Assembly (NCBI GenBank): GCA_002898895.1
Contig: BEHS01000001.1
Span: forward strand, 7,106 to 71,105
Direction: 5' to 3'
Origin: a bacterium HR16
GTDB lineage: Bacteria; Armatimonadota; HRBIN16
Length of the DNA stretch: 64,000 bases
Part shown: positions 42,986 to 60,552 of the stretch, in pieces
Position numbering within the stretch: the first letter of the stretch is position 1
Layout: each line of letters begins with the position of its first letter
The notes under the pieces: model-generated
What the model was told of the DNA's origin: nothing
What the model saw: the letters and a program-made list of their open reading frames with translations, nothing else
Databases searched by the model: none
Position numbers and translations under genes: made by a program

Positions 42986-43501
42986 ATGCCAGAAGGTTCT
43001 GATAATAAACCTCGCTATTATTGGGACACTTGCTGTTTCATTCACGTTCTGGACGTTCACAGCAGGAAACGGGCAGCGCAAGATGAGCAGGCGCAGCAGA
43101 TGGTCTTTTTTCTGGAGCAGGCGTTCCGCGAGGCTGTGGAAGGCAAGGTACAACTGGTCACGGCTGAATTGCTTCTGGCAGAGATCCTACCTGTAGATGA
43201 TGACCATAAGAACTTTCTGAAACAGGTTAAAGCCTGCCCCTACATCGAGCTGTTAGCGGTAAGCAGGCAAGTTTTTGAACTGGCTGGACGTCTACGTGCG
43301 GAGTGGCGCACGCACAGCAGGAGCGACCTCAAAACGCCCGATGCCGTTCACATTGCTACTGCGCTACTCTTTAAGCCCGATGAGATGTGGACTACTGATG
43401 ACCGCATCTTGAAATTGTGTAATCCGAGCGAGGGCACATACGGAGAATTGCGGATTGTGCGCCCCCATGCCCTTCCACAAATGCGTCTCCCTGACCTATA
43501 G
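42986..43501 (+). CDS. PIN-domain protein (VapC-like ribonuclease)
   Basis: Acidic PIN residues in YYWDTCCFI, DAVHIATAL and TTDDRIL motifs. Confidence 0.8.
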   Translation: MPEGSDNKPRYYWDTCCFIHVLDVHSRKRAAQDEQAQQMVFFLEQAFREAVEGKVQLVTAELLLAEILPVDDDHKNFLKQVKACPYIELLAVSRQVFELAGRLRAEWRTHSRSDLKTPDAVHIATALLFKPDEMWTTDDRILKLCNPSEGTYGELRIVRPHALPQMRLPDL

Positions 43502-44307
43502 GAGGTGCGTGGCGGATGAACACCCTCTACTACGGCGATAACCTCGACATCCTGCGTAAACACCTGCAGGATGAAACAATAGACCTCATCTACCTCGACC
43601 CGCCCTTCAACAGCGCACGTGACTATAACGTGCTCTTCCGCGAGCAGTCGGGTGAACCCGCGCAGGCGCAAATCAAAGCCTTCACCGACACATGGCAATG
43701 GAGCGAACGCACCTACGTGCAGTTCTGCGAGGAGTGTCCCAAACCCGCCCTTGTGGAACTGCTACAGGGCTTCGTCAAAACACTGGGGCGCAACGATGTC
43801 ACCGCCTATCTGGTGATGATGGCGCCCCGACTGGTGGAACTGCACCGCGTGCTCAAACCCACCGGAAGCCTCTACCTGCACTGCGACCCCACCGCCAGCC
43901 ATTACCTCAAGGTGATGCTCGACGTCATCTTCGGAGCGCGTAACTTCAAAAACGAGATCGTGTGGAAACGCACCAGCGCACATAGTGGGGCAAAAAGATG
44001 GGGACCTGTTCATGACACCGTTCTGTTCTATACAAAGAGCGATACATACACGTGGAACAAAGTTTTCAGCCAGTTTGATGCTAAGTACGTCGAGGAGTTC
44101 TACAGATACGAGGACGATAGAGGCAGGTATCAGCTGGTAGACCTTACAGGAGCGGGAGTTCGCTATGGGGAGTCAGGTCAGCCTTGGAAAGGGGTGAACC
44201 CCACTGCTGTTGGCAGGCATTGGGCAGTTCCGCAAAAGCTGGTAGAGGAAGTGGTTGGGAGGGAACGCGCGTCGCAATTAAGTGTGCAAGAGAAACTGGA
44301 TGCACTA

Positions 44308-45492
44308 GTACTTGACCTCTCATCAATCTTGTGGTATAATCTCGCTAATTTGCTAACAGGAGTGCAACCATGCGAAAATACAGCGTCCAATTGACCGAGC
44401 AAGAACACGAGCAACTGACCGACATCATCCGCAAAGGCAAAGCACCTGCCAGACAGATCACCCGCGCCCACATCCTGCTCAAAGCACACAACGGCGAACG
44501 CTACGCCGACATCGCCCACGCTGTGGGGGTCAGCGAGGTCACCGTCACCACCGTCTGTCGGGAGTTCCAGACGCTGCGCACCGACGCCATCTATCGCAAA
44601 CGCCCCAATCGCGTGTATGCCCGCCGACTGGACGGCGCAGCAGAAGCGCAGTTAATTGCTCTGGCTTGCAGTGCGCCACCGGAGGGACGGGCTTCGTGGA
44701 CGATGCAGTTGCTGGCAGACCGGATGGTGCAGTTGGAGGTGGTGGAGACCATCTCCGCCGAGACAGTGCGTCGTACGCTGAAAAAAACGACCTTAAGCCT
44801 TGGCAGAAGCGTTTCTACTGCATCCCCCCAGAGGCAAACGCGGCGTTTGTAGCGGGGATGGAGGACGTGTTAGACGTGTATCAGCGTGCTTACGACCCCC
44901 ACAGACCGGTGTTATGCCTGGATGAGTTGCCGGTGCAGTTAGTGGGTGAAGTGTTCACGCCGTTGCCGATGGAGCGAGGCAAGCCGAAGCGCGAGGATTA
45001 CGAGTATAAGCGGGAGGGCACAGCGAGCGTGTTCATGGTGTTTGAGCCGCTGGCAGGCAAGCGTTATCTGTTTGTGCGCTCCCGTCGCACAGCGTGTGAT
45101 TGGGCGGAGGTGATGCAGCAGATAGCAGACGAGTTATATCCTGAAGCGGAGCGGATAGTGATGGTGATGGACAATCTGAACACGCACGATGTGGCGTCGC
45201 TGTATAAGCGTTTTGTGCCTTCGGAGGCGTGGCGATTGCGTCAGCGTTTTGAGATACACCACACACCGGTTCACGGTAGTTGGTTAAACGTGGCGGAGAT
45301 CGAGTTAAGCGTGTTAGTGCGTCAGTGTTTGGAACGTCGGATAGGGGATATAGGGGCGTTAGACCGGGAGGTACAGGCGTGGGCGCGGTTGCGCAATGAG
45401 GCGTGCGCTTGTGTGGACTGGCAGTTCACGACGGCGGACGCCCGCATCAAGTTGAAGCGTCTCTACCCAAAGATTGAGGAGAGGTGATGTAC
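44308..45492 (+). mobile_element. IS630/Tc1-mariner family insertion sequence (1185 bp) with TA target-site duplication
   Basis: Imperfect 23-bp terminal inverted repeats GTACTTGACCTCTCATCAATCTT / AAGATTGAGGAGAGGTGATGTAC flanked by TA (44306-44307 and 45493-45494). Two overlapping transposase ORFs. Confidence 0.85.
44370..45487 (+). CDS. IS630-family transposase (orfA HTH plus orfB DDE, joined by programmed -1 frameshift)
   Basis: Slippery A7 run A_AAA_AAA_C at 44782-44788. orfA ...LKKTTLSLG in frame 0, and -1 frame continues [18 protein letters not shown]... with the DDE region. Confidence 0.75.
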
Positions 45493-46480
45493 TAGAAGAG
45501 GCAGGCTATATTGTATGGCCCGAGAAAGGGCGAGTGCCCCGCTACAAACGGTATCTGGACATGAACCCCGGTAACCTCATTCAGGACGTTATCACCGACA
45601 TCAACCCGATTTCCTCTCAAGCCCGTGAGCGTCTTGGCTATCCCACACAGAAACCTATCGCCCTGCTGGAGCGAATCATTCTCGCGTCCAGTAACGAGGG
45701 CGACGTAGTGCTGGACCCCTTCTGCGGATGCGGAACCGCCATCGTCGCCGCCCAGAAGTTGAAACGCCACTGGGTCGGCATCGACATCACTCATCTTGCC
45801 ATTGCGCTCATCAAATACCGTCTCGCCGACATGTTTGACCTGCGTGAGGGCAAAGACTACCTCGTTGTCGGCGAACCCACCACCGTCGAGGACGCCCGTG
45901 CCCTTGCCCATCATGACCGCGACGAGTTTCAGCGGTGGGCAATCGGGCTTATCCCCCGTGCCCGTCCCTATCAAGACAAAAAAGGCGCGGACACCGGCAT
46001 CGATGGCGTGCTCTTTTTCAAAGACGACCCAGACGACCCCAAGAAGGTGGTGATTCAGGTCAAAAGCGGGCACGTGGGTGTGAAGGACATTCGCGACTTT
46101 CGTGGGGTGATGGAGCGCGAGAAAGCCACTCTCGGCTTGTTCGTTACCCTTGACGAACCCACCCGCGCCATGCAGACCGAAGCGGAGAGCGTCGGCTTCT
46201 ACGTCACCCCGCTGGGCAAACTGCACCTGCCTCGCCTGCAGATTCGCACCGTCGAGCAGCTCCTGCGCGGCGAGGGTTTCCAGATACCCGGTGCGGCGAT
46301 GCTGATGGGCGTCTCCCGTGCCGAGCGCGTGCAAGAACAGTTCCGCCAGGGCGAGCTGGAGATGTAATCACGCGGACAGTGTTCACCTGCCCTGTCTTGT
46401 CCGGCAGCCGATGCTATAGACCCTGTACTGTAGAGCGCCAAGGCACGACTGCTTGAATGGGAGCAGACCGTTTCCACTTA

Positions 46481-48384: not shown

Positions 48385-48749
48385 GGCGTTTTCTCCTGTT
48401 TGCCTGACCAGAAGCGCGCCAGCTCCTTGCGTGCGCTCTCCATCATCTGTTGCAGCTGCTGCAGGGTGTGCTGGGTATCGCCGTTTCGGTTGGCGACCTC
48501 CGCAAGCGCTTTACCGCCCTGTTCCAGCTCCCTCTTCGCCTCATCCAGCTTCCCTGCGCTCATCAGCTGCAGAGCACGTTGCAGATGCTGTTTCGCCTCG
48601 GCGATGCCTGCAGGTTCTGTGCCCTTTTGCTGGCTGGCAAGCTTCACCTGTATCTGCTCCACCTGCTGGCGAAGCTCGCGCAGCTGCTGGTAATTATACA
48701 CTACCCCCACACACGCTGCCACCGCCAGCAGGAACGTGATAAACCGCAT
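48381..48749 (-). CDS. membrane-anchored coiled-coil protein, hypothetical
   Basis: N-terminal TM helix, then Gln-rich coiled-coil. Confidence 0.4.
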   Translation of the reverse strand: MRFITFLLAVAACVGVVYNYQQLRELRQQVEQIQVKLASQQKGTEPAGIAEAKQHLQRALQLMSAGKLDEAKRELEQGGKALAEVANRNGDTQHTLQQLQQMMESARKELARFWSGKQEKTP

Positions 48750-49865
48750 CTACGATGCCCCCTTCCCGTGCAGACGCGCCTGTAACCACCACCACAACCG
48801 GGTTTCCCAGTCTACCCGTTTGCGCCATGCCCATGCAAGTGCACCTCGCGCAGAGCACGCCCGCCGATGCCACTGTATGCGCGGCTTCCACCGATACTTG
48901 TACGGTTCGTCGCCGCGCAGGAAGTCGAACACCACACACCCCTCTTCTATCGCCCGACGGATGGCGTAGGCGGTCAGTACCGTGCCCATGCTATAGCGAG
49001 CCAGCGCGGGGTCAAAGCCTCCCAGATAGTAATACGCACGCCGCCCAAAATGAAACACGTACAGCACCGCCCGAACCGCCCCGCCCGCCCGCAGCGTGTG
49101 AAGGCGCAACCAGCCATTTTGCAAAGCACACTGCGCCCATTCACGATGGAACTGCCGCACGCGCGGATGAAAGAACCCGCCGGGCAACATTCTCTGTCGC
49201 CACCGGCGCGTGTGCAGGTCGAACAGCGCCTCCAGCACGGCTGGTAACTCCTCTGGATCGGCGGTATCCAGGCGCACGTCACCCAAATCTCGCTGCATCT
49301 GCCTCTGGGCATAGCCGATGTTGAAGCGCGTCTTTTTACTTAAAGACCCCCAGTAGGCATCCCACGTTTCGGGCAACACCACATACGGACACTTCTCTTG
49401 CCCCACCACGTGCCAGCCTCGCGCCTCCGCAACACGAGCCATCCACGAGCCGTCTGCCATCTGGTGCAGGTCGGCGCAGCATCGGCTTTCCAGCCACTCC
49501 GCCACCCGCTCGGCGACAGTTCGTTCAGATTCGGGCGCCGCGATGATGCCCAGCCTGTCCGAAATGCCAGTGCCCATCCAGCGCAGCACTTTACCCATGC
49601 CCGTCCGGCTGGCATACAACGGGGCAACGCCTGCCACTTCGCCGTCCTCCTGCACGCACAGCACCTGTGCCCTTTTGCCCTTGCCAAAGTGCTTCCACCA
49701 CAGGCTCGTCCATTCCCACGTCTGAAAGGGCGAAACCTGCAGGTTTACCGCCTGTAGCTCGCGCCACGCGGAGCACAGGCTCTCCTCCCAATCCTCACCA
49801 GCAACGACGACTCGAATGCCAGCCTCCTCCTCCTGCCGAGTGATTATAACCTGCCACCGGGCAGG
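48750..49865 (-). CDS. CelD/BcsL-like GNAT protein (FemAB-like, Acetyltransf_6-type)
   Basis: Open frame continues upstream of the track ORF to the stop at 49869-49871. N-terminal SPFQTWEWTSLWWKHFG motif typical of the family. Start codon uncertain. Confidence 0.55.
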   Translation of the reverse strand, partial: PARWQVIITRQEEEAGIRVVVAGEDWEESLCSAWRELQAVNLQVSPFQTWEWTSLWWKHFGKGKRAQVLCVQEDGEVAGVAPLYASRTGMGKVLRWMGTGISDRLGIIAAPESERTVAERVAEWLESRCCADLHQMADGSWMARVAEARGWHVVGQEKCPYVVLPETWDAYWGSLSKKTRFNIGYAQRQMQRDLGDVRLDTADPEELPAVLEALFDLHTRRWRQRMLPGGFFHPRVRQFHREWAQCALQNGWLRLHTLRAGGAVRAVLYVFHFGRRAYYYLGGFDPALARYSMGTVLTAYAIRRAIEEGCVVFDFLRGDEPYKYRWKPRIQWHRRACSARGALAWAWRKRVDWETRLWWWLQARLHGKGAS

Positions 49866-49883
49866 GCGTCAACCATTATCCGT

Positions 49884-50165
49884 TCATACCCCCGTCCGCA
49901 GCAGAAGATACAGCGACACCATCAACCACACTCCACCCACAAAACCCATCACCAGCCCCGCAATGCCCAGTACGTCCAGTCGCGTTGCTGTGCCCGTCAT
50001 CCCCAGCGCATAGCCGAGCAATACCGTCACACCCGACGCTACTACCTGCCTCTGGTATCGCTTGCGCTGGGGATGTTCGATCACATAACCGCATTGCGGA
50101 CACGGTTGCGTGGGGTCGCTGACCTCTGCCGCACATTTCGGGCAACGCACACTCTGATCCATCAC
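49884..50165 (-). CDS. zinc-ribbon membrane protein
   Basis: CPKC...CPQCG ribbon followed by two TM helices. Confidence 0.45.
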   Translation of the reverse strand: MMDQSVRCPKCAAEVSDPTQPCPQCGYVIEHPQRKRYQRQVVASGVTVLLGYALGMTGTATRLDVLGIAGLVMGFVGGVWLMVSLYLLLRTGV

Positions 50166-50972
50166 TCAATACCTTTCCAAAAACTCTCGCCCCTGCCGTA
50201 GAGACTCTACCACATCCTGCCCGCTTTCGTCTTCCACCGCGTACCACCCATCGTAACCGATGGACTTCAGCAGGGAGATATACTCATTCCAGGGTACTGC
50301 TCCTTGCCCGACAGTGGGTCTGCCTGTTTCGGGATGGCGGTCCTTGGCGTGCGTATGCACGATGTGTGGAGCCAGCTCGCGCACACCTTCCAGCACGCCA
50401 TACCACAGCATGTTCGCCGGGTCGTAATTTACCCTCAGCGCAGGGCTGCCGATGTCCTCGATAAACTGCCTCAACACGGGCGCAGGTTCCATGCCCGTCT
50501 CGATGCAGAAGATACCTCCTACCTTCTCGGCGTGTTTGGCTATCTGCTCTATCGCGTCGCGAATAATGGGGTAGACAGGGTCGCTCTTGTGCTCGGGGAT
50601 AACGCCCGGATGCGTCGTGACGATAGGCGAGCCCATGTCCACCGCCAGTTCGATACACCGTTGCGTCTTTGCGATGCGTTCCTCAATGCCTTCCGCCTCA
50701 TCGAATCCGCCAAAGCGCGTGGGGCCGGACATTTGCGCACAGAATCCGCTGATTTGCAACCCGAACGATTCTACCCGCCTGCGCCACTCGGCGCGCTGTG
50801 CGCCTTGGCACACATCGGGGTCTAACACACAGGGTCCGTAGCTGGCAACGTTCCACATCTGCACGCCCTGAAAACCCAGCTCAGCTGCCGTCTGCAGAGC
50901 GTTCATCAGCCTCTCCTCCGTCTCCCCTGCCGACAGCGACCACAATGCAACTCCAATCTTCAATGAACCCAT
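50166..50972 (-). CDS. sugar phosphate isomerase/epimerase (xylose-isomerase-like TIM barrel)
   Basis: RBS GGAGA then ATG at 50972 (MGSLKIGVALWSL). Conserved E/H/D metal ligands pattern. Confidence 0.75.
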   Translation of the reverse strand: MGSLKIGVALWSLSAGETEERLMNALQTAAELGFQGVQMWNVASYGPCVLDPDVCQGAQRAEWRRRVESFGLQISGFCAQMSGPTRFGGFDEAEGIEERIAKTQRCIELAVDMGSPIVTTHPGVIPEHKSDPVYPIIRDAIEQIAKHAEKVGGIFCIETGMEPAPVLRQFIEDIGSPALRVNYDPANMLWYGVLEGVRELAPHIVHTHAKDRHPETGRPTVGQGAVPWNEYISLLKSIGYDGWYAVEDESGQDVVESLRQGREFLERY

Positions 50973-51091
50973 TCTCCTGCTCCTCGCTGGCAAAGTGTGT
51001 ATGGATATAGTTTCACAAAAGGCAAGAGAGTTCCTGTTTGGCAGGATTCACCACCGCCTGACGGGGAAAAGAATTCCGTCAGGGAGTACCG

Positions 51092-52690
51092 ATGGTTGAG
51101 CAGCAAGCGACAGAGAGCGTATCGCAACAAGTGCTTCGTCATCCTGTACCTGCCGGCGCGTGGTGGGTGCTGATGATTGCGCTGAGCATTCAAATTGCCT
51201 TCATCCAGAAACCCTTTCACGTCGACGATACGGTGGTACTGCATATCGCCCAGCAGGTGCTGCAAAACCCGCTGAATCCGCTGTCCGGCGAGCTGGACTG
51301 GGACGGCATGGTCAAACCCACCTTCCACGTCACCACCAACCCGCCCCTGCTCAGCTACTATCTCGCCCTGTGGATGCTCGTGGGCGGAGAGCGCGAGTGG
51401 CTGATGCATACCGCCATGCTGATATGGCAGATTCTGCTCTGGTGGGGTGTGGTGCTGCTGGCGCGGCGTTTCGAGGTCAATGAAACCCTCGCCACCGCAC
51501 TGGTCATGCTGAATCCGGCAACCATCGTCTCACCCAACCTGATGCGCGACGTGCCGATGGTCGCTCTGTGGACGCTGGGTACGGCGGTGTTCTTACTGGG
51601 AAGTGGCGCAGAAGATGCCAGACGTATGGGCTGGGGCGCGCTGGTGACCGGTTGCGCCGCGCTGATGAAGTACTCAGGCCTGGGAGCAGTGCTGCTACTG
51701 GGGGCGTACGCGCTCCTGCAGAGACGCCCTCGCCATCTGTGGTGGGTGTTGCTCGCACTGCTGCCTTTCGCTCTGTGGTGTGTGCAGAATCTGATAGTGC
51801 ACGAACAGCTGCACTTCTGGGCAACTATGCAGCGCGTCGATATCAGCACTCCAGTGAGCGACCGCCTGTGGGGCACGCTGGCAGCGCTGGGCGGAGTGTG
51901 GCTACTGTGGCTGTGGGCGGGTATCGTTTGCAGGCGGTGGCAGGTGGTCTCCATTGCGCTGATAACCGCTCTTGCCGTCGGCTGGTGGCGAGGGCAGCAG
52001 TTTATGCCTGCAGGGGATGCGGAAGCCGCCTTCTGGAGCGCGGCGGGGGCGTTCCTGCTGGTGTTGACCCTCTTCCGCGCGTGGGAGGCTTGGCGAGAGC
52101 AGGCTTTTCCTGTGCTGTGGACGGGGTGGGTGCTCCTCGCGATTGGTATCGGCGCGCCCTTCGCGGCGGCAAGGCATCTCCTGCCCGCCATTGCACCGCT
52201 GGTGTCGCTGTGGCTTCCCAAATGGCAGCTGCGCTGGGGCAAACGGCAGGCTCTCTCGGCGGTAGTAGCGGTGCAAACCGCCTTTGGCATCTATGCGGGC
52301 TGGTGCGACATGCAGATAGCGGACGTTTACCGACGCGGAGCGCGGTTACTGGCGCAGGAACACGGCGCACAGGCGTTTGTGGGGCACTGGGGGTGGATGT
52401 ACTACGCCCGAGCTGCCGGATTACAGCAGGTGAGCGCAAACCGCCTGCCCCACGAAGGTACTCTGGTGGCGATACCCACAGAGGGCGGTGATGCGACAGT
52501 GCCTCCCTCGCTGGTGCCGCACCTGATGTACGAGGACAGTGTGGAACTGAGTGTCCCGGCGCATCTGGCGACTCTTCCTCCCAGAGCGGGCTTTTACGCC
52601 TCGCTCCGAGGTGCGCCCCCGTTCCGATGGCTACCCGACGGCTATCGCGAGCAGTTTGACCTCTTCCGTGTGGAGGCGAAGCCGCAATGA
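51092..52690 (+). CDS. GT39/GT83-like integral-membrane glycosyltransferase (PMT/ArnT-like)
   Basis: About 12 TM helices. First-loop acidic motif (HVDDTVV). Translationally coupled to a polyprenol-phosphate glycosyltransferase. Confidence 0.7.
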   Translation: MVEQQATESVSQQVLRHPVPAGAWWVLMIALSIQIAFIQKPFHVDDTVVLHIAQQVLQNPLNPLSGELDWDGMVKPTFHVTTNPPLLSYYLALWMLVGGEREWLMHTAMLIWQILLWWGVVLLARRFEVNETLATALVMLNPATIVSPNLMRDVPMVALWTLGTAVFLLGSGAEDARRMGWGALVTGCAALMKYSGLGAVLLLGAYALLQRRPRHLWWVLLALLPFALWCVQNLIVHEQLHFWATMQRVDISTPVSDRLWGTLAALGGVWLLWLWAGIVCRRWQVVSIALITALAVGWWRGQQFMPAGDAEAAFWSAAGAFLLVLTLFRAWEAWREQAFPVLWTGWVLLAIGIGAPFAAARHLLPAIAPLVSLWLPKWQLRWGKRQALSAVVAVQTAFGIYAGWCDMQIADVYRRGARLLAQEHGAQAFVGHWGWMYYARAAGLQQVSANRLPHEGTLVAIPTEGGDATVPPSLVPHLMYEDSVELSVPAHLATLPPRAGFYASLRGAPPFRWLPDGYREQFDLFRVEAKPQ

Positions 52691-53541
52691 GTGTGCCGCA
52701 GGTAAGCGTTATCGTGCCCATGTACAACGAGGAAGCGAACCTCCCCGAGCTGCACGCCCGTCTGACGAAGGTGCTGACCGGCATAGACGCCTCCAGCGAA
52801 ATCATCTATGTGGACGACGGCAGCACCGACAGCACGCCGGACCAGCTGGAGATGCTGTTGCAACAGCCTCAACCGGTGTGCGTGCGCGCGGTGCGGTTGC
52901 CTCGCAGGCGTGGGAAGACCGCCGCGCTGTCCGCCGGTTTCGCCATCGCGCGGGGAAGCATCCTGGTGACCACAGACGCCGACCTGCAGGAACCTCCCGA
53001 AGTGCTACCCATGCTTCTCTCACGAGTGCGGTCCGGCGAGGCGCATCTGGTGGTGGCGTGGCGACAACAGAGGCAGGATACCCTCTTCCGTGTGCTTGCC
53101 TCGCGCCTGTTCAACACCACCCTGCACTGGCTGACCGGTCTCTCCCTGCACGATGTGAACTGCGGCACCAAAGCCATGAAGCGCGAAGTGGCGGAGAACC
53201 TGGAAGGCTGGATGATTTCCGATATGCACCGCTACCTGCCTGTTCTGGCAGCGCGAATGGGATACCGTGTCGCGGAGGCTCCGGTGCCTCATGTGGCGCG
53301 TCGTCGCGGGCACAGCCGCTTTGGAGCCAGTCGGTACCTTCGAGCAATAGTGGACCTGTTGCCTGTCTCGCTGATGTGGTGGCGCGGATGGCAGGTGTGG
53401 CTGACGCTGGTGGCGGTATCCATCTGGCTGACGGCGACGCATCATCCGGTCGGCTGGCTCGGTCTGGCGATGGCGGTGGCATGGGCAGGAAGCGCACTGG
53501 CGTTCTGGTGGAAGTATGACTTTCCATCACCGGGGCGTTGA
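52687..53541 (+). CDS. GT2 polyprenol-phosphate glycosyltransferase (Ppm1/GtrB/ArnC-like)
   Basis: VSVIVPMYNEE...IYVDDGSTD...DADLQ motifs plus two C-terminal TM helices. ATGA overlap with upstream gene. Confidence 0.85.
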   Translation: MSVPQVSVIVPMYNEEANLPELHARLTKVLTGIDASSEIIYVDDGSTDSTPDQLEMLLQQPQPVCVRAVRLPRRRGKTAALSAGFAIARGSILVTTDADLQEPPEVLPMLLSRVRSGEAHLVVAWRQQRQDTLFRVLASRLFNTTLHWLTGLSLHDVNCGTKAMKREVAENLEGWMISDMHRYLPVLAARMGYRVAEAPVPHVARRRGHSRFGASRYLRAIVDLLPVSLMWWRGWQVWLTLVAVSIWLTATHHPVGWLGLAMAVAWAGSALAFWWKYDFPSPGR

Positions 53542-54111
53542 CGAGGACGACGCGCCTGGCGGGCGCACCAGCTTCCTTTCGCCCGTTATGATGCTCTGCG
53601 TATAGTACCCCGGCACGCCGTAGCGTTCCGCCACTGTCCAGTACGAAGGCGCTCTGTTGTCCAGGCGGTAGGTCAGCGCATTCATCACCGCCATCATTTG
53701 GCTCAAAGAGAGATACCACCGGCCATCCTCGGTCTGATAAACCGGGATGACAAGGTCCGGTTTCTGCGACAGAGGCACGAGCCAACGGAGCTGGTCGCGA
53801 GGCTGTGGTTGTGGCAACACCGGTTCGCCCCGAGGTTTGGGGTAGCCTTTGTACCAGACGCCGGTTCGCAACAGGGCGTCTATTGCCTGCGGGGTCAGGT
53901 TCAAAGAGCGTATCTCTTCAGGGTGGGTGAGGCGATACAGCGTCTGTACGTCTCCTCTTTGCAGAGCGATCAAGGTGGCACGCATTACCTCCTCTGCCGA
54001 TGGAGGCGATAGCCACCTGTAGAGAAAGTAGCCCAGAACCAGTATCCCCACGCCTGCGAGTAGCGCATGAACCTTGTGCTTACGTAGATACACAGAACAT
54101 CTCGCCAGCAT
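53527..54111 (-). CDS. membrane-anchored hypothetical protein
   Basis: N-terminal TM helix. Last gene of the 55196 to 53527 minus-strand block. Confidence 0.4.
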   Translation of the reverse strand: MLARCSVYLRKHKVHALLAGVGILVLGYFLYRWLSPPSAEEVMRATLIALQRGDVQTLYRLTHPEEIRSLNLTPQAIDALLRTGVWYKGYPKPRGEPVLPQPQPRDQLRWLVPLSQKPDLVIPVYQTEDGRWYLSLSQMMAVMNALTYRLDNRAPSYWTVAERYGVPGYYTQSIITGERKLVRPPGASSSSTPR

Positions 54112-54119
54112 TGTACACC

Positions 54120-54581
54120 TCAGTGATAAGGCTCGCTGGAGATGTTGTCCCCAGCAAGCCGGTTTTTAGCATTAAGAACGTAAATAGGAGGCGGTGGCGG
54201 CGGAGGTGGCTGTGGTTCTATGCACTGATTGGAACTGCACACCCCTCCAACCAAGGCTGAGGCAAACGTACAAATCACCCACTGCACATTCTGGCATTCG
54301 GGTGCTGTCCCTATCAGCGTCCATGTTCTGCAGCCATACTGGCAACATCCGCCTTCACGTGTGGCACAGGCGGGCCAGACGCCGCTAACAGTGAAGCCAC
54401 ACTGATTGGGGATTGCAGGAGGGCAGGGGTTGGTTCCCACACAGGTTTGTGCGGGACAGGTAAGAACCTGAGGTACACCCAATGCCTGAAAGAAGATGAG
54501 GAGCGTAGCCACGAGTATACCGGCATCCAGCATCCTCAGAATGTGTTGTTCGCGAATGCTCATATTCAATACCCTCCTCAT
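54120..54581 (-). CDS. Cys-rich secreted/membrane-anchored protein with poly-Pro tract
   Basis: TM helix then about 20 Cys in 100 residues and a PPPPPPPPP run. Confidence 0.4.
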   Translation of the reverse strand: MRRVLNMSIREQHILRMLDAGILVATLLIFFQALGVPQVLTCPAQTCVGTNPCPPAIPNQCGFTVSGVWPACATREGGCCQYGCRTWTLIGTAPECQNVQWVICTFASALVGGVCSSNQCIEPQPPPPPPPPIYVLNAKNRLAGDNISSEPYH

Positions 54582-54590
54582 GTAGCGATA

Positions 54591-55196
54591 TTACCAACTC
54601 TCCACCTCCACGACGGTGGAGCGGAGTGGCACCCACTTTGATTCCACTTGCTGGCTGAGACGCAGGATGTTCACGCGCTTGCGCGCGGTACTTGGGGCAT
54701 CAAGGGATGCCGGAGGATTATGCACCTCGCAAATGCACACCACAACCCGGTCTCCCATTCTGGCGACCCTCTTCGCAAATCGATACTCCTCAGGAACAGG
54801 CATGTCCTCACTTTCCACGCACCACTGGTAGGTGTTGACACGTTGCAAGGGCAACCCTGCATAGGTAAAAGGGTCTATCCAGCCGAAATAGCCCGGGCAA
54901 TGGAATACCCCATCGTCCTTCACGTACTGCCTGCGAAACTGTTCAAACTGAGAGAAAGAAGGTACGCCCAGCTGCCAGTATTCCATCTCTTGCCCGGAGA
55001 CGGCATCCGCCCCGTTATAGTCTTGCCGGTAGAGGGCGAGAGCCATTCCAATTTGCCTCAGGTTGGAGAGACACGTGGTGACCTTGGAGCGTTCTCTGAC
55101 GGTGTGGAATGCTGCCAGCAAAATACCTGCGAGCACCCCGATAATAGCAACCACGATAAGCAGTTCTAAGACGGTAAATGCCCCCGATCGCTTCAT
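54591..55196 (-). CDS. DUF1559-type protein with prepilin-type N-terminal cleavage/methylation domain
   Basis: GAFTVLELLIVVAIIGVLAGILL prepilin motif. RBS GGAGAG then ATG at 55196. Confidence 0.7.
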   Translation of the reverse strand: MKRSGAFTVLELLIVVAIIGVLAGILLAAFHTVRERSKVTTCLSNLRQIGMALALYRQDYNGADAVSGQEMEYWQLGVPSFSQFEQFRRQYVKDDGVFHCPGYFGWIDPFTYAGLPLQRVNTYQWCVESEDMPVPEEYRFAKRVARMGDRVVVCICEVHNPPASLDAPSTARKRVNILRLSQQVESKWVPLRSTVVEVESW

Positions 55197-55533
55197 TGGT
55201 TTCTCTCCGGCATCCTCGCGTTCGTCCGCGATGTCTGAGGAGGGATAGTGACGATGAAAGTCGCGCACGGCTGCTCTCACCACCCGTCCACATAAAGAAG
55301 ATGATAAGTTGTCATGCTTACACATATCTGCATCTCCATTACACATCACGGTAACGTCGTAAGAACCTTTTTACGTGTTGTTACCCGCATTATAAATCAC
55401 CACACGAAAAGATGCAATATACCCCCCGCACCTCCAGAAAACCAGCGGTTCTGCCCTCTGTCCCGCGCAGACAGGAGACTTTTGCTTCGTCGCGAATACA
55501 ATTTGCACTGCTTGTCTTTCCGGTGATGCAACC

Positions 55534-57078
55534 ATGACCCGTGTGAGCGTGTGGGACGGCGCAGGTTGTGTTGGAGGCAATAAAATCCTGCTACAGGATG
55601 ACGACCTGACTCTGTGGCTGGACTTCGGGCAGAACCTCAGCCGCCTGATGGACTATTATGAGGAGTACCTGAAACCCCAGAAGGGGCGCGGGCTGTACGA
55701 GCTGTTTGTAATGGAATTACTGCCCCCCGTGTACGGCATCTATCACGAACGCTTTCTGGACGATTATCCCTTCGACGACTGGCGCGTCCGACTGGATGGG
55801 GTGGACAGTGTACTGCTCTCGCACGCGCATTCCGACCATGCGGGCGACCTGCAATACCTCCTGCCTGACATCCCGCTGGTCTGCTCCGCCGAGAGCGCGC
55901 TGTTACTGCGCGCCCTGCAGGACTGCAGCAGCCTCGACGACGGCACGATTTACGTACGCCGGTTCGAACTCAAGGAGGGCGAGTTCAGGAAGCTGGCGTG
56001 GAACCGCAGAGAGTCGCCCCTCGCCACTTTCCGCCCCGTACTGACCGCCGACGGCGACACGGAAGCGATGCAATCCTTCTGGAGCGAACTGCCCGGCGGA
56101 CACCATGACAAATGCGACCTGCAGCCGCTGGAGGCGTTCAACGGGCGGATAAAGGACTACGAGGTGCGCTTCTTCCCATTAGACCACTCCATCCCCGGCG
56201 CGGGTGCGTGGGCGGTGCAGACGAGCGCGGGATGGGTGGTATATACAGGCGACCTGCGCTTTCGAGGCGAGCGCAAACACCTCACCGAGCGATTTATGGA
56301 AGAGGCAGCACGGCTACAACCGGTTGCACTCATCATCGAGGGCACGCGCATCACGCGCACCGGCTCCGGCCACACCGAAGACGATGTGCAGGAAGAGTTC
56401 GCCAGACTGCTAAAACAGCACGCCCAACGGCTGGTGAGTGCAAACTTCTCGATGACCCATCTGGAACGTCTGAAGCGGTTCTGGCATACCGCCCGCGAAT
56501 GCGGCAGGCAGGTGGTGGTGAACCCCAAAGACCTGTACCTGCTCCATGCGTGGCGCCAGAGCGGATACGAGCTGCCGTTAGACGACGGCTCCTTGCGCGT
56601 GTATCAGGGCGTGGGCAAACCGCCTTCCGAATCGTGGGAGAAGGCTCTGCACGAACTGTATGGCAACCTGTGCATCACCGCACAGCAAATCTCGCGCCAT
56701 CCCGACCAGTACCTGCTCTGCTTCGGCTACTTCGACCTCAACGAGCTGCCGTACCTGAAGGTTTCAAATGGGTTATGGATACAATCCTTCAGCGAGCCGA
56801 TGACGGAGGAACAGCGTATCGACGACCGACGGCTCAACCGGTGGCTACAGCACTTCGGTTTCACACGCGAACCACCGCAGGGCGACCCGGACGATGAAAG
56901 GGTGCCCCTGCACGTGTCAGGACACGCCTCCGGCGAGGAGCTGGCAAGGGTGATAGAGACCATCCGCCCGAAGACGCTGATTCCGGTGCACACTACCGAA
57001 CCGGCAGCTTTCGTGGAGCGGTTCTCGGGTATAAGTAAGGTGATACTCCCTGAAATCGGAGAGGAGATACGCTTATGA
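55534..57078 (+). CDS. MBL-fold beta-CASP ribonuclease (RNase J-like)
   Basis: HAHSDHAGD metallo-beta-lactamase motif and beta-CASP HVSGHASGEEL motif. Confidence 0.7.
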   Translation: MTRVSVWDGAGCVGGNKILLQDDDLTLWLDFGQNLSRLMDYYEEYLKPQKGRGLYELFVMELLPPVYGIYHERFLDDYPFDDWRVRLDGVDSVLLSHAHSDHAGDLQYLLPDIPLVCSAESALLLRALQDCSSLDDGTIYVRRFELKEGEFRKLAWNRRESPLATFRPVLTADGDTEAMQSFWSELPGGHHDKCDLQPLEAFNGRIKDYEVRFFPLDHSIPGAGAWAVQTSAGWVVYTGDLRFRGERKHLTERFMEEAARLQPVALIIEGTRITRTGSGHTEDDVQEEFARLLKQHAQRLVSANFSMTHLERLKRFWHTARECGRQVVVNPKDLYLLHAWRQSGYELPLDDGSLRVYQGVGKPPSESWEKALHELYGNLCITAQQISRHPDQYLLCFGYFDLNELPYLKVSNGLWIQSFSEPMTEEQRIDDRRLNRWLQHFGFTREPPQGDPDDERVPLHVSGHASGEELARVIETIRPKTLIPVHTTEPAAFVERFSGISKVILPEIGEEIRL

Positions 57079-57560
57079 AGATAGGCATCATGGCGGACAG
57101 TCACGATAACCTGCCCAAAATCCGCGCGGCGATGGAGCTGTTCGAGCGCGAGGGCGTGGGGCTGATACTGCACGCGGGCGATTTCGTAGCGCCCTTTGCG
57201 GTGCGGGCGATGCACGACGCGCCCTGCCGGGTGGTGGCGGTGTTCGGCAACAACGATGGCGAGCGCATTGGGTTATCCAGAGCCTTCGAGCCCATCGGCG
57301 AGGTGCATCCCCGAATCGCCGTCGTGGAGGCGGACGGCAAGCGGGTCGGCGTGGTGCATCAGGACGAGCTGGTTGCGCCCATCGCGGCGGGCAATGCGCT
57401 GGACATGCTGGTGTACGGACACACCCACCGGCTGGACATCCGCCGCGAGGGTCAGGTGCTGGTGGTCAATCCGGGCGAAGTGGGCGGCTGGCTCACGGGC
57501 AAGTGTACGGTGGTTATACTGGATACGCAAACGATGGAGCCGAGGGTGTGGGAGGTGTGA
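57075..57560 (+). CDS. YfcE/MJ0936-family metallophosphoesterase
   Basis: MADSHDN, GDFV, GNND, GHTH motifs. ATGA overlap with upstream gene. Confidence 0.8.
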   Translation: MKIGIMADSHDNLPKIRAAMELFEREGVGLILHAGDFVAPFAVRAMHDAPCRVVAVFGNNDGERIGLSRAFEPIGEVHPRIAVVEADGKRVGVVHQDELVAPIAAGNALDMLVYGHTHRLDIRREGQVLVVNPGEVGGWLTGKCTVVILDTQTMEPRVWEV

Positions 57561-57573
57561 GCAGAGGCGAGGT

Positions 57574-60352
57574 CTACCAGAAGTGCATGCGCCTGCGGCA
57601 ACGCTCGGCGTCTGCGGTCGACCCTGCTTTCTCATAGTTCAGTATGGCTAAGTAATACAGTCGTGCTCGCTCGTAGCACCGAGCAGCCTCCAGAGGCATA
57701 TCAGCCTTTTCAAACCACTGCCCAGCCTCTGACCAGTTTCCCTGTTGCATGTTCCACACCCCCCCAACACCAAAAAGAGTCTCTCCCTCTGCCTGCTTGT
57801 CCGTAGCACTGAGCCGCCTTCGCGTAATCTTCCGCTCGTACGTAGCAGCTGGCCGCCTTTGCGTAATCCCCTAACCGCTGATAGCAACCGGCCGCCTTCG
57901 CGTAATCCCCTGCTCTTATATAGCAACTAGCAGCATCTGGAAGCAAATAAGCTTTTTCAAACCACTGCCCTGCTTCTAACCAGTTGCCTTGTCCTTCGTA
58001 AAACTTCCCCCAACACTGTGCGGCATCCCTTGTCCTGCTGGTTTGCTCGTAACATCTTGCAGCATTGGAGTAGTCCTTCGCTTGCTCATAACACCGACCC
58101 GCGTTGGAGTAGTCCTTCGCTTGCTCATAACACCGACCCGCGCTGGAGTAGTCCTTCGCTTGCTCATAACACCGACCCGCGTTGGCATACTGCCTTTCCT
58201 TCTAGTACAACTCCGCAGCTTCCTCGAGACGTCCAGACCATTCCATCCGCCGTGCCCTAGTCCAGATAGCTGGGTTTGTTGTCAATGCCTCATAGCTCCT
58301 CACCACCACCCTCTCCGCCGCCTCCCACGCGCTCAGCCATTGCTTGCTCAGCTTCGGCAGCGAAGGGGGCAAGCTCTGGGGGGTGTCTTCCACAACCACC
58401 AGCCCCCTCCGCGCTCGCGTCAGAGCCACATACAGGCGCGAGAAAGCCTGCAGACGGAGCACCGGAGACCTTCGCACCTGTTCGTGCATCCGGGAATAGA
58501 TGTTGAACAAAATGACCCGGTCGAACTCCAGGCCCTTTGCCTCTTCCACAGAACACAGCAGCGCGCCGTGCTGACCCAATTGCTGTGCTATGGGAATGTT
58601 TTTATCGCTTTCATCCCACACGATAACCGCTCCCTGGTCGCCAAGCCACTCCGCCAGCTGTTGCGCGCTGAGGGCAGGTGAATCGAGCGTTGCAGCAGCA
58701 GGAGGCAGTCCATCTAACAGCGCCGTCACATGGTAATCCGGCATTTCATCGAGGTCGTATTCCCTCTTGATCCGTTCGAGCTCCCCCTGCACGAACAGGG
58801 CAATCTGTCGGCTGTTGCGCAGGTTCAACTTCAGCGAGCCTTCCAGAACCGTTACCTCTTGCGAAAGCCTCCTGACAAGCCTGTTCCAGTGGAAACCGGA
58901 CGGACGCAACGCCTGGAAGGGGTCACCGGTGAGGAACAGCCCCGCGGGATGCCGTACCAGGCGCATGAGCAACATCCACTGCACTTCGCACAGGTCCTGA
59001 ATCTCGTCCACATATACGCCGTCGTATGAAGCGACGACCTTTTCGGGTTGTTCCCACAGCTTACGGCTCAGGTCCAGCTCGTCCGATCCGCCGATTGGGA
59101 ACCAGGTTTGGATGGCAGCAAAGATTGCCTCGCGCTCTTGCACAGAGAAGTCACTCGCCGCATTGTGCAAATAGCCTTCGCGGTCCAGTAATTGGCGCGT
59201 TTGCCAGTTGAGCTGACCTTTGATGACGTCCCAGTATTCTGCCCACAATGTCTCCTCATCCCAGGGGAACTCCCTGTGGCGACGCTTCCACGACCTGAGA
59301 GGCTCTTTCAGGTTCCCCATCTTCCAGACCTCTTTGACACGCTGGTACGCCTCATGAAACTGCCTGCGCATCTCGGTGTAGCTCTCTATCCGTACGTTGG
59401 GGAACCAGCGGCTTAACATATCTTCGTAGCTGAGAATATCTACCCTCTCCAGTAACTCCCGTCCTCTCGGTAAGTGCTCAAAGAGCAGCTGACACAGGGA
59501 GGTTAACGTCGGCGAATAGGTGACCACCAGATACCTGCCGGCGGGGTTCGCTCGAGCCTGACGATATAAGTGATAGAGCAGGATGGTGGTTTTGCCGCTA
59601 CCTACCGTTCCGCTCAGCAGTAGCGGACCCGGCTTCCGCACGAACTCCATCTGCTCCGGCAAGAGGTGCAGCAGGAAATCTTCGTCGCTCTGCGCGAGAT
59701 GCTCGATATCCTGCTCAATACGGTCCAGGCCGATCTCCAAAAACTCCTGCGCGTCATACAGGCTCTCCTGCTCCACCGATGACGCTTGCTCCAGCCACCA
59801 TTCCTCACCCCTGTAGTGCGGGCGGATGTACTGGTTGAGCACACTCTTACCTGTCTTAACCTCCCTTTCCACTATCGAGAGAGGCACGGTAGGATACTCG
59901 GGCAGTTTGCTGATGCCTATTTCCTCCAGTATGCCTTGTTCGTGCAGGCTGCTCGCAAGGCACAGCTCTTCCGCCTGATGGAGCGAATCATACGAGATAC
60001 GGCGGGCGGCGCTCAGGGCATCGTCATGATGGTCTACGTCCCACACAACAATACGGTCGCGCAAGTGGTTGCCATCCGAGCGACCTGTCCCTCCGTTTGC
60101 ACCGCCGTACTCGTGGGCGGGTTGTATGGTGAAGATGAGGCGCACATCACGGTTGACTCGCGCCTCGAACACGGGACGGTCAACACCTTTGAGACGTTTC
60201 ATGCGCAAGCCGAGGTGGTCGGTTTGCCCTTCGCAGAGCAAACGCACGCATTTGCTCACCTGGTCGTGTGGTAAAGCCTTTTCTCTCAGTTTCTTCTGTA
60301 CCCTGCGATGGAGGACGACGCTGCGCTTCATGAGCACCCTCTCTGGAGACAA
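57574..60352 (-). pseudogene. UvrD-like SF1 helicase with RelE/ParE-like N-terminal domain and C-terminal 13-residue repeat array, interrupted by in-frame TAG (58202-58204) and a frameshift (about 57740)
   Basis: Walker A GTVGSGKTT, motif II DEIQD, motif VI VALTRARRGL. After TAG the same frame continues KERQYANAGRCYEQAKDYSSAGRCYEQAKDYS... to 57710, then a shifted frame continues to 57574. Confidence 0.6.
58067..58183. repeat. perfect 39-bp tandem repeat x3 (GGAGTAGTCCTTCGCTTGCTCATAACACCGACCCGCGYT), coding for 13-aa units
   Basis: Three head-to-tail copies differing at one position. Degenerate 39-bp units continue to about 57780. Confidence 0.85.
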
Positions 60353-60552
60353 ACTCTTGTCACATCATAGCATATCCCTTAAACACTTTGCAAGCGGTTC
60401 GTGAACAAAAAGGCAGGATTCTCGCACTCCTACAGGAACTGTGCTCTCCGCCACGAAAAGAGTAGCCGCAGGCTTCAGCCTGTGCCAGTGATACGCAACC
60501 TGAAGGTTGAGGCTGCGTTTGGAATCACATTTGATGCTCTAGGAGGGCGGGC

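Follow-up and report, generated by a model that had tools for sequence, protein, structure and literature searches.

ArmD of the type II ARMADA system is, judging by its published description and by the TPR-less relatives in our collection (P0046-P0070), probably the closest described relative of the gene examined here. ArmD is a protein of ~700 aa in which a RelE-like N-domain is fused to a UvrD-family (GajB-like) helicase (preprint PMC12458937). Its operon is fixed and also encodes ArmA (BrxHII-like helicase), ArmB (PglX-like methylase) and ArmC (YprA-like helicase), and in E. coli NCTC 12900 ArmD is required for phage protection, which is abolished in a Walker A mutant (PMC12458937). Another described combination is CnuH of type II/III-A CoCoNuTs, an SF1 helicase with a RelE-like 'RNase toxin-like' domain whose action on RNA has been predicted in a defence context (PMC11090510). 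Literature searches on RelE with SF1 helicases and on TRANK1/UvrD/TPR found nothing, a 2009 census of toxin-antitoxin (TA) systems makes no mention of helicases, and a paper on NTP-dependent conflict systems does not describe a RelE-helicase-TPR architecture. A RelE-like domain joined to a UvrD-type helicase was described only very recently, in ARMADA, where it is one obligatory component of a four-gene system; the relatives found in this study are far more numerous.

We compared these systems with a gene in a 64,000-nt stretch of bacterium HR16 DNA (the window, meaning the whole stretch that was analysed). As in ArmD, which we know by description, the RelE-like N-domain of the window protein sits directly on a UvrD-family SF1 helicase, and the Walker A/B spacing is similar (K266/D454 in ArmD, K247/D442 in the window protein). 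ArmD has no TPR array, whereas the window gene has a TPR-like tail of ~210 aa; ArmD works only with ArmA, ArmB and ArmC, whereas the window gene and its orthologous loci are without such neighbours. CnuH differs from the window protein in that its helicase resembles UPF1 and not UvrD, the RelE-like domain lies between an OB-fold and the helicase, its partners are of the McrBC type, and it lacks a TPR array. GajB of Gabija is, like the window protein, a UvrD-like SF1 helicase, and GajB models were the best PADLOC matches. However, PADLOC matches to the window gene were generic UvrD-motif matches alone, short and weak (50-70 residues around the helicase motifs, at most 48 bits), GajB has no RelE domain or TPR array, and its partner GajA (OLD nuclease) is not among the window neighbours. 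Neither PADLOC nor NCBIfam assigned the window protein to a family.

The features of the gene are collected in Table 1. The preliminary description had reported a 716-aa ORF with the motifs GSGKTT, DEIQD and LTRARRG; the ORF and its motifs were borne out, the 716 aa being counted from a TTG. In the alignment, homologues begin at MKRSVVL, which matches the ATG at 60331, and GenBank lists a 709-aa product for bacterium HR16 (P0003, 100% identity). Because of these homologue starts, the GAGAGGG stretch and the 709-aa GenBank product, ATG 60331 is favoured over the TTG, and judged from the sequence it is almost certainly the true start of a 709-aa product ending at TAG 58204-58202. The count of promoter-like sites such as the one upstream was not above expectation when compared with shuffles. 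No paralogue or gene conversion of the helicase gene was found inside the 64-kb window, and the exact HR16 protein was not on record in the contig index.

Table 1. Positions of the gene, its modules and its lesions in the window
Feature	Position (strand)	Remarks
Promoter-like site TTGCAA-18-TATGAT, upstream TG	60364..60393 (-)	33 nt before the ATG; consensus match alone
ORF, minus strand	58202..60352 (-)	TTG start, 716 aa
Probable start codon ATG	60329..60331 (-)	Preceded by GAGAGGG, Shine-Dalgarno-like; agrees with homologue and GenBank starts
RelE/ParE-fold (BECR) N-terminal domain	59969..60331 (-)	Residues 1-121
Conserved linker / N-terminal accessory region	59672..59968 (-)	Residues 122-220; LPEYP..VP, GEEWW and DAQEF motifs
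SF1A UvrD-like helicase/ATPase core	58367..59671 (-)	Residues 221-655
Walker A GSGKTT	59585-59602 (-)	Sequence motif
DEIQD	58994-59008 (-)	Sequence motif
Motif VI LTRARRG	58403-58423 (-)	Sequence motif
~14-16 half-TPR (AdAR/SNAP-like) 13-residue units, two super-repeats	57577..58234 (-)	In two frames owing to the lesion at 57759-57765
In-frame TAG at the Glu position of the first half-TPR unit	58202..58204 (-)	GAG to TAG, a G-to-T change
39-nt tandem DNA repeat, 3.1 copies, 97% matches	58065..58185	Three AGRCYEQAKDYSN units
39-nt tandem DNA repeat, 2.9 copies, 72% matches	57813..57927	AGDYAKAAxCYxR units
G7 homopolymer, frameshift site	57759..57765 (-)	One G extra; G6 restores the frame
Natural stop TAG of the repaired gene	57574..57576 (-)	The convergent Metallophos_2 gene stops 13 nt away

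Two lesions were found in the gene. Past the in-frame TAG the reading frame stays open for 164 codons, until 57710, in agreement with the ~160 codons reported earlier. Glu is the commonest residue at the TAG position (48 of 93 aligned homologue HSPs), and the nearest homologue, L001, has GAG there, so the proposal that the TAG stands in place of a Glu was confirmed. A second frame break, ~440 nt beyond the TAG, is also real, but it lies in the G7 run and not near 57740 as first described; the gene then resumes in another frame down to 57574, as had been stated. When one G was removed from the G7 run, the final 61 codons came into register with an earlier super-repeat copy, and the two copies (DAAQCWGKFYEGQGNW vs DSFWCWGVWNMQQGNW) matched residue for residue. 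The repaired protein (TAG to GAG, minus one G) has 918 aa and aligns end to end, across both lesions, with 13 intact homologues of 889-1382 aa that have the same three modules and cover 98% of it; a search for such full-length homologues had been proposed in the preliminary description. Since the TAG falls at the first repeat and the G-run carries a frameshift, at most a 709-aa RelE-helicase product is expected, with the TPR tail missing. Over the 709 codons dN/dS was 0.26, indicating purifying selection on the helicase part, and the damage is therefore either recent or artefactual. As read from the assembled DNA, these results demonstrate that a single gene for a three-module protein is present here in disrupted form, the modules being a RelE/ParE-fold domain, an SF1A UvrD-like helicase and a half-TPR solenoid.

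The N-terminal domain, which had been likened to RelE/ParE toxins, has the beta-alpha-alpha-beta-beta-beta(-alpha) RelE fold, and a profile of 34 N-domains matched RelE (2khe, 3.4e-5), aRelE (1wmi, 5e-5) and Rv2866 (1e-4), which upholds the likeness. Seven related N-domains matched Pfam HigB-like or ParE_toxin, and the window N-domain alone fell below the Pfam cut-offs (ParE_like, 14 bits vs 24.4). R64, the equivalent of R61 in E. coli RelE, is invariant in 34/34 N-domains. By sequence alignment, the equivalents of the RelE R81/Y87 pair are not conserved, and the N-domain of the window protein has an HHDD motif there instead. Throughout the TPR branch E56, R64 and H102 do not vary, and they resemble YoeB E46/R65/H83, which by sequence alignment we take to be their equivalents. 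RelE, YoeB, YafQ and ParE toxins are free proteins of ~90 aa with an antitoxin beside them, whereas the window domain is tethered to a helicase; no cognate antitoxin gene was found beside the window gene, and no recurrent small neighbour in 51 loci. The linker that follows (residues 122-220) has invariant columns in the homologue alignment and was modelled as helices plus a short sheet, with pLDDT mostly >80.

In the helicase core, motifs I, Ia, II (DExQD), III, V and VI are all present and are invariant in 69 sequences. Pfam UvrD-helicase (32.6 bits vs 23) and UvrD_C_2 (29.4 vs 27.4) scored above cut-off, as did Viral_helicase1. The core contains two RecA domains and was matched by Foldseek to UvrD, PcrA, Rep and HelD at 1e-13. 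NCBIfam scores were 27-29 bits vs cut-offs of 750-911, so that this is not a conventional UvrD/PcrA. Neither of the two outcomes that the preliminary description had named as refuting it, a conventional UvrD/PcrA or an N-terminal region aligning to a standard helicase accessory domain, was thus observed. The sole STAND signal in Pfam was a faint P-loop match to nSTAND_NTPase5 (14.7 bits vs 34).

The repaired tail was recognized by the Pfam models TPR_2 (6e-15, 54.5 bits vs 27), TPR_7 (6e-12, 45 vs 27.9), TPR_12 (41.6 bits vs 30.1), SNAP (2e-7, 31 bits vs 25) and AdAR (1e-6, 28.4 vs 27). The 13-residue repeats noted before are thus present, yet they are half-TPR units of a known kind, and 14 anchored 13-mers define the unit register. 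The tail is ~210 aa long in the window gene and 350-750 aa in relatives. Repeat number varies among all homologues, and also between two assemblies of one population.

We then considered the family as a whole. The N-domain is carried by 557 clusters (50% identity) at E≤1e-10, and most complete copies have a long TPR tail. A 44-mer DNA motif, validated on the window, was used as the family probe for contig scans; metagenome contigs yielded at least 120 loci, and 2.9 million viral contigs yielded 0 matches. The helicase gene has a dS of 0.25 vs 0.04-0.06 for two flanking genes, and along the gene stretches of 99-100% identity are interspersed with others of 72-85%. The same pattern of mosaicism and divergence was found in a second assembly of the sister population.

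Genomic contexts were judged from ten loci with precomputed Pfam hits and from all-against-all neighbour clustering, in which 267 neighbour ORFs of 51 loci revealed no conserved partner gene. The window gene is flanked upstream by a 200-nt spacer and a divergent membrane protein gene (438 aa) and downstream by the convergent Metallophos_2 gene, and it is an isolated single-gene unit as described earlier. Orthologues of 51-77% identity keep this housekeeping neighbourhood, whose conserved members are PhyH, a YgaP-like membrane protein, a 445-aa membrane protein, Metallophos_2 and an RMMBL metallo-beta-lactamase. Four further TPR-branch loci have mainly metabolic or housekeeping flanks, one of them also with VapBC and a transposase, and a fifth has largely unannotated neighbours. 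One TPR-bearing relative adjoins VapBC, Fic and type I CRISPR-Cas genes, and another is plasmid-borne beside a DUF262/DUF3696 pair. TPR-less relatives with the same N-domain were found within a Zorya/HNH/GmrSD island, next to NERD-UvrD, and in a restriction-modification-like plasmid operon. In raw counts, TA, CRISPR or DUF262 neighbours occur in 3 of ~9 independent TPR-bearing contexts, and defence-type contexts in 3/3 for the TPR-less branch. The suggested likeness to defence genes thus has indirect support at most; the window copy and its orthologues lie in a housekeeping neighbourhood and not in a defence island. Elsewhere in the window, an IS630-like insertion interrupts a methylase-nuclease gene, a case of genuine gene decay.

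Considering these data together, we think it fairly probable that the locus is a disrupted three-module gene whose intact family acts as an ATP-driven, conflict-type surveillance protein. High dS with a mosaic pattern, variable repeat number, the lack of a partner gene and the occurrence of disrupted copies would be signatures of the conflict type, and from them, together with the defence links of relatives, ArmD and CnuH, we infer the surveillance role of the intact family. In such a protein, the fast-changing TPR array may bind a protein ligand or partner, and the helicase may be a motor or switch that depends on nucleic acid. The RelE-like domain, with its YoeB/YafQ-like Glu-Arg-His set (E56, R64, H102), would cut RNA, probably on the ribosome, or alternatively would dock the protein onto RNA or ribosomes. 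Once activated, the protein could halt translation in a cell that is infected or under stress. Without the TPR tail, motor and effector would lack their sensor, so that the system would be inactivated or deregulated.

A more far-reaching interpretation, which we consider rather improbable, is that the stand-alone RelE-helicase-TPR proteins are undescribed single-protein immune sensors in which an SF1 helicase takes the place of the STAND NTPase. STAND/Avs sensors and the window family share a stand-alone effector-like N-domain, a central NTPase and variable C-terminal TPR-type repeats, but the central module is a STAND NTPase (NACHT/NB-ARC) in the former and an SF1 helicase in the latter, and the likeness is one of logic, not of homology. 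According to this interpretation, the hypervariable half-TPR array would recognize a protein of the invader, the helicase would link this recognition, along with the binding of nucleic acid, to ATP turnover, and the RelE-like domain would then shut down translation. Null alleles that recur, mostly as GAG-to-TAG, and the mosaic replacement of alleles at one fixed chromosomal site would be marks of a costly gene under fluctuating selection. If the proteins are indeed self-contained sensors, the 'effector - NTPase - repeat sensor' logic of innate immunity extends to a helicase motor.

The interruption itself could be explained differently. It is possible, though on the unlikely side, that the gene is intact in the organism and that both the TAG and the additional G arose through faulty sequencing or assembly of this metagenome-assembled genome. 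The frameshift sits in a 7-base homopolymer, the nonsense change is a G-to-T transversion, which is the oxidised-guanine signature of library preparation, and a dN/dS of 0.26 means that there was no long-term decay. The repeat array is also hard to assemble, and two assemblies of one population disagree in its number of units. Among the matches listed, disruption was flagged in 13 of 90 metagenomic copies, ~10 of them robust, and in-frame stops in the family were mostly TAG, mostly at Glu codons. GAG-to-TAG was confirmed against near-identical homologues in L076 and L106, and L020 likely carries the same change as far as its sequence can tell; this recurrence in other metagenome contigs again fits an error, and GAG-to-TAG is expected as just ~10-12% of nonsense paths. 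The TAG of L061 is probably a natural stop, and L040 and L071, both from a single sample and with many in-frame TGA codons, were set aside as either of low quality or in a different genetic code. However, errors of this kind seldom reach the consensus of a short-read assembly. Two independent lesions no more than 450 nt apart would also have to be errors, although the 64-kb window has 50-odd other long ORFs that are open; the TAG is not part of the near-perfect repeats, and the IS630-like insertion mentioned above shows that genuine decay occurs elsewhere in the window.

The function of the intact family could likewise be a different one. Its members may be housekeeping helicases that remodel nucleic acids, for instance on stalled ribosomes, RNA polymerase or RNA-protein complexes, with the RelE-like domain as a non-catalytic dock and the TPR array as a scaffold for protein interactions, and not an immune or toxin system, a view that we hold possible but doubtful. 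Core-genome synteny is held in orthologues down to 51% identity, one relative is placed between ileS-lspA-rluD and glmU-glmS-pcrA-gatCAB, and others lie amid metabolic genes. The absence of viral copies and of a PADLOC family match, the presence of the RNA polymerase recyclers HelD and HelR among the best helicase matches, and the missing R81/Y87 pair of RelE all point in the same direction. On the other hand, the synonymous divergence is four to six times that of the flanks and is mosaic, and about a tenth of the listed copies are disrupted, which is unusual for an essential function; in L076 the stop falls at the Walker B glutamate, and in L127 the entire motor is deleted. The TPR-less relatives are embedded in defence islands, and ArmD is a defence component. 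If the housekeeping role is nevertheless correct, the family would be a rare instance in which a toxin fold has been domesticated as a ribosome- or RNA-docking module.

It has also been suggested that the TAG might be recoded. Extended to both lesions, this would mean that the interruptions are programmed, with TAG read-through or recoding by a suppressor tRNA, perhaps supplied by a phage, and slippage on the G-run, giving a conditional full-length protein. The predominance of TAG at Glu codons among family stops would agree with this, and a G7 run could in principle slip. However, of the 54 long ORFs in the window 16 end in TAG, this gene's own natural stop is among them, and no tRNA gene was found in the window; on these grounds TAG recoding was rejected. 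Moreover, the position of the TAG is a different one in every lineage, GAG stands at the corresponding site in the nearest homologues, which likewise lack the G-run, and two separate recoding events would be required, which makes programmed interruption highly improbable.

That the gene encodes a conventional repair helicase, UvrD/PcrA or an AddA/RecB subunit as its GenBank name implies, is scarcely credible: Pfam UvrD-helicase and UvrD_C_2 domains are present and UvrD, PcrA and Rep are what the core matches best in structure, but orthology is refuted by the NCBIfam equivalog cut-offs (PcrA 27 bits vs 911, RecB 24 vs 696, AddA models unmatched) and by a domain architecture in which a Pfam scan found no nuclease domain and the RelE fold and TPR array are foreign to UvrD, PcrA, AddA and RecB, and the genome of the ileS/glmU-flanked relative encodes a bona fide PcrA of its own, two genes away from its family copy. 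The GenBank name 'ATP-dependent helicase/nuclease subunit A' (AddA-like) is thus wrong, the 709-aa product as annotated is truncated, and ~630 nt of coding sequence downstream of it were left unannotated in GenBank.

The preliminary description placed a RelE/ParE-like domain, an SF1 helicase and a 13-residue repeat array in one minus-strand gene broken by a TAG and a frameshift, and this description was accurate. The ORF listing gave 58202..60352 (716 aa, TTG start); the true start is likely the ATG at 60331, because the homologues and the HR16 GenBank product P0003 (709 aa, 100% identical) begin with MKRSVVL and GAGAGGG lies immediately 5' of this ATG. The three helicase motifs were found as claimed. 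Beyond the TAG, where about 160 codons in the same frame had been expected, we counted 164, reaching 57710. A second frame break, with resumption to 57574, also held, although its site is a run of seven G rather than a point near 57740. Changing TAG to GAG and deleting one G gave a single frame of 918 aa counted from the ATG, and once the G was deleted, DSFWCWGVWNMQQGNWSEAGQWFEKA matched the earlier DAAQCWGKFYEGQGNWLEAGQWFEKA position by position.

Features of the window gene, its surroundings and disrupted relatives (L-numbers are contigs carrying relatives)
Feature	Position	Strand	Detail
GSGKTT	59585-59602		SF1 motif
DEIQD	58994-59008		SF1 motif
LTRARRG	58403-58423		SF1 motif
TAG ending 709-aa ORF	58202-58204	minus	sequence reading
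39-nt tandem array	58065-58185		97% matches
39-nt tandem array	57813-57927		72% matches
Run of seven G	57759-57765		repeat pattern changes frame after it
TAG closing second repeat frame	57574-57576	minus	stop of repaired gene
Divergence hot-spot	58044-60475		90.6% identical to sister population, block mosaic
Flanks of hot-spot	48536-57567		98.3-98.5% identical to sister population
N_methyl ORF	54591-55349	minus	prepilin-type N-terminal methylation motif
N6_N4_Mtase/Mrr_cat fusion	43516-46367	plus	split by IS630-like element
IS630-like insert	about 44370-45487		roughly 1.1 kb; HTH ORF 44370..44852 overlapping DDE_3 transposase ORF 44666..45487
PIN-domain ORF	42986..43501		immediately upstream of split fusion gene
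Mu-like major head subunit gpT	39836-40762	minus	PF10124, 2e-65
In-frame TAG	window 58204; L076:1514; L106:578; L109:483; L020:898 and 769		L020 is TAG + TAA
Frameshifts	L081, L099, L111, L114, L122
Whole-motor deletion	L127

The region beyond the TAG is real coding sequence. The repaired tail matched TPR_2 (6e-15), TPR_7, TPR_12, SNAP (2e-7) and a 12-residue aromatic-di-alanine repeat. Fourteen 13-mers could be anchored on A-x-x-[CWLQ]-[YWFRL]; they fall into two super-repeats with a longer 'QGNW.EAGQWFEKA' unit at the end of each. Intact full-length homologues had been named as a check, and a search of 5.8 billion proteins returned 13 (889-1382 aa, 51-77% identity), which cover 98% of the repaired protein. 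In their alignment the array runs through both lesion sites and the TAG position is mostly Glu, as had been read from the repeat unit; L001, the contig of the closest homologue P0001, has GAG there. It is very probable that the window gene is a disrupted or mis-sequenced member of a RelE-UvrD-TPR family.

Programmed read-through with frameshifting was rejected, because two independent events would be required and the nearest homologue (L001) shares neither site; TAG is an ordinary stop, terminating 16/54 long ORFs in the window (repaired gene included), which removes the suggested recoding, and ARAGORN found no tRNA genes in the window. Sequencing errors, one of the two main rival readings, are a less likely source of the lesions. 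Over 709 codons dN/dS was 0.26; purifying selection has therefore acted on the helicase part, and the lesions are recent or artefactual. Among the matches listed, 90 loci had 300 aa or more of family sequence; 13 of them were flagged as disrupted, about 10 robustly. In-frame stops in independent family members were nearly all TAG, the one in L076 falling on the catalytic Walker B Glu of DEAQD, and L076 and L106, like the window, show GAG-to-TAG relative to their nearest homologues. This change made up 4-5 of 7 nonsense events, against 7-12% of one-step nonsense paths in the window coding sequence, the value varying with the assumed transition bias; codon content would predict roughly 10%, and tested post hoc P is about 1e-4 or lower. 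The G-to-T excess may reflect oxidative damage, in vivo mutation bias or selection for null alleles, or it may be technical, an artefact of low-coverage libraries or of oxidised guanine in sequencing. Separately, the family genes on two contigs of sample Ga0124853 carry many in-frame TGA codons opposite varied residues (L040 has about a dozen and L071 several), pointing to sequence of very poor quality or to a genetic code with TGA reassigned.

The guess of a RelE/ParE-like N-terminus was right. The first 153 residues of the window gene alone gave a sub-threshold ParE_like match (E 0.047). A profile from 34 family N-domains matched solved toxins, namely T. thermophilus RelE (3.4e-5), P. horikoshii aRelE (5e-5), M. 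tuberculosis Rv2866 (1e-4) and then YoeB, and seven related N-domains individually matched Pfam HigB-like or ParE_toxin. The AlphaFold model (pLDDT 82, pTM 0.76) predicts a strand and two helices, followed by a sheet of three to four strands and a helix at the C-terminus, and its top 27 Foldseek matches were all RelE/YoeB/YafQ/ParE-type toxin-fold proteins. R64 (numbered from the ATG), which is the arginine in the RL(I/L)F strand, was invariant in 34/34 N-domains. Relatives with the C-terminal array (TPR-bearing) share invariant E56, R58, R64, H102 and D103, and an HHDD motif occupies the RelE R81 and Y87 positions in the HMM alignment. YoeB (E46, R65, H83) and YafQ have a Glu-Arg-His-type set, and by this likeness the set in the N-domain could still allow RNA cleavage.

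The second of the three modules has intact motor motifs: UvrD-helicase, UvrD_C_2 and Viral_helicase1 scored above Pfam cut-offs, and the motor residues were invariant among 69 relatives. The predicted 709-aa model (pLDDT 88.6, pTM 0.87) matched UvrD, PcrA, Rep and HelD at about 1e-13. By NCBIfam the protein is no orthologue of a named helicase (21-29 bits vs cut-offs of 696-1100), which speaks against the conventional UvrD/PcrA considered in the preliminary description. PADLOC gave only short GajB-motif matches (at most 48 bits), and the window protein contains no nuclease domain. This leaves the name in GenBank, 'ATP-dependent helicase/nuclease subunit A', unjustified.

The N-domain profile retrieved 557 clusters (50% identity, E<=1e-10) among 1.84 billion representatives, with long members gathering near 1100-1450 aa. 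The back-translated motif VFEAR-x5-R[LIVM][LIVM]FT, validated on the window, gave at least 120 matches in metagenome contigs and zero in 2.9 million viral contigs; among the matches listed, complete metagenome ORFs ranged over 964-1551 aa around a median of about 1330 and extended 350-750 residues past motif VI. Clustering of 267 neighbour ORFs from 51 loci yielded no family in more than three loci, those in three being confined to close relatives, and the family therefore has no conserved partner gene.

As to co-localisation with defence islands, the TPR-less relatives of about 700 aa with the same N-domain lie in clear defence settings at the three loci examined; the window locus is not a defence island. 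One TPR-less gene adjoins NERD-UvrD and another lies in a restriction-enzyme/methylase/helicase operon on a Pseudomonas plasmid. In a Gemmatimonas MAG (L008:9090-12085), such a gene overlaps by 4 nt with an HNH_2 nuclease gene at the latter's end, and the pair, which may be a two-gene HNH + RelE-helicase module, is preceded by a Zorya-like set (ZorA-like, MotB/OmpA-type, EH_Signature, SNF2-Mrr) and followed by GmrSD. TPR-bearing contexts were mixed: housekeeping genes (ileS-lspA-rluD / glmU-glmS-pcrA-gatCAB), metabolic genes at two loci, largely unannotated neighbours, VapBC with a transposase, VapBC-like genes with Fic and type I CRISPR-Cas, and, on a small plasmid of a cyanobacterium, a DUF262/DUF3696 pair.

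Phage protection is lost when ArmD, the RelE-like/UvrD-family helicase of the ARMADA type II anti-phage system, is deleted or its Walker A lysine is mutated (PMC12458937), and CoCoNuT CnuH helicases also carry a RelE-like domain (PMC11090510). JGI automatically named one homologue 'TPR repeat protein / mRNA-degrading endonuclease YafQ', and our literature search found no description of a stand-alone RelE-UvrD-TPR protein. The fusion is therefore a known architecture and its TPR-bearing, partner-less form an undescribed variant; the window gene is a broken copy of this variant, itself uncharacterised, and the architecture was noted only recently; moderate interest attaches to the family, less to the HR16 copy.

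A conflict-system function of the family is proposed tentatively, and on balance we favour the combined statement of a disrupted member and such a function. The other main rival, that the family is a remodelling helicase of housekeeping type whose toxin fold has been domesticated, seems less likely; it is compatible with sequencing errors, because each addresses a different part of the claim. In the proposed mechanism, the TPR array would bind a ligand or act as a scaffold, the helicase would be a switch on nucleic acid powered by ATP, and the RelE-like domain would either deliver an output directed at RNA or dock on the ribosome; the HR16 copy would be cut off from its sensor.

As described, the window gene stands alone between a divergent 438-aa membrane protein gene (further upstream, a YgaP-like membrane protein and PhyH) and convergent Metallophos_2 and RMMBL metallo-beta-lactamase genes. 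Gene order was identical around orthologues at 77%, 62% and 51% identity, so inheritance has been vertical, at one fixed site, in this Armatimonadota-like lineage; one homologue's record is named Armatimonadota. The gene evolves fast and as a mosaic. Compared with L001, from a sister population, the two downstream genes were about 98% identical (dS 0.04-0.06) and the helicase gene 90.6% (dS 0.25), and stretches at 99-100% alternated with others at 72-85%, where local dS reached 0.7; this mosaic points to allele replacement by recombination. L025, an independent assembly of the L001 population (99.9% identical), showed the same contrast between gene and flanks. The C-terminal tails of the window gene and sister allele are unrelated; at the 3' end of the latter, a Gly-rich, hydrophobic segment replaces further TPR units. 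Repeat number varies: the L001 and L025 arrays differ by about three 13-residue units (around L025:10740-11090), being either polymorphic in that population or collapsed by assembly.

Elsewhere in the window, the N_methyl ORF fits the proposed lineage, such proteins being typical of large type IV pilin-like families in Armatimonadota and Planctomycetota-like genomes. The DNA methylase fused to a nuclease is interrupted by an insertion element, and a PIN-domain ORF precedes it. The region at about 37-42 kb beside these genes, where the ORFs surrounding gpT had no Pfam match, is probably a prophage or prophage remnant.
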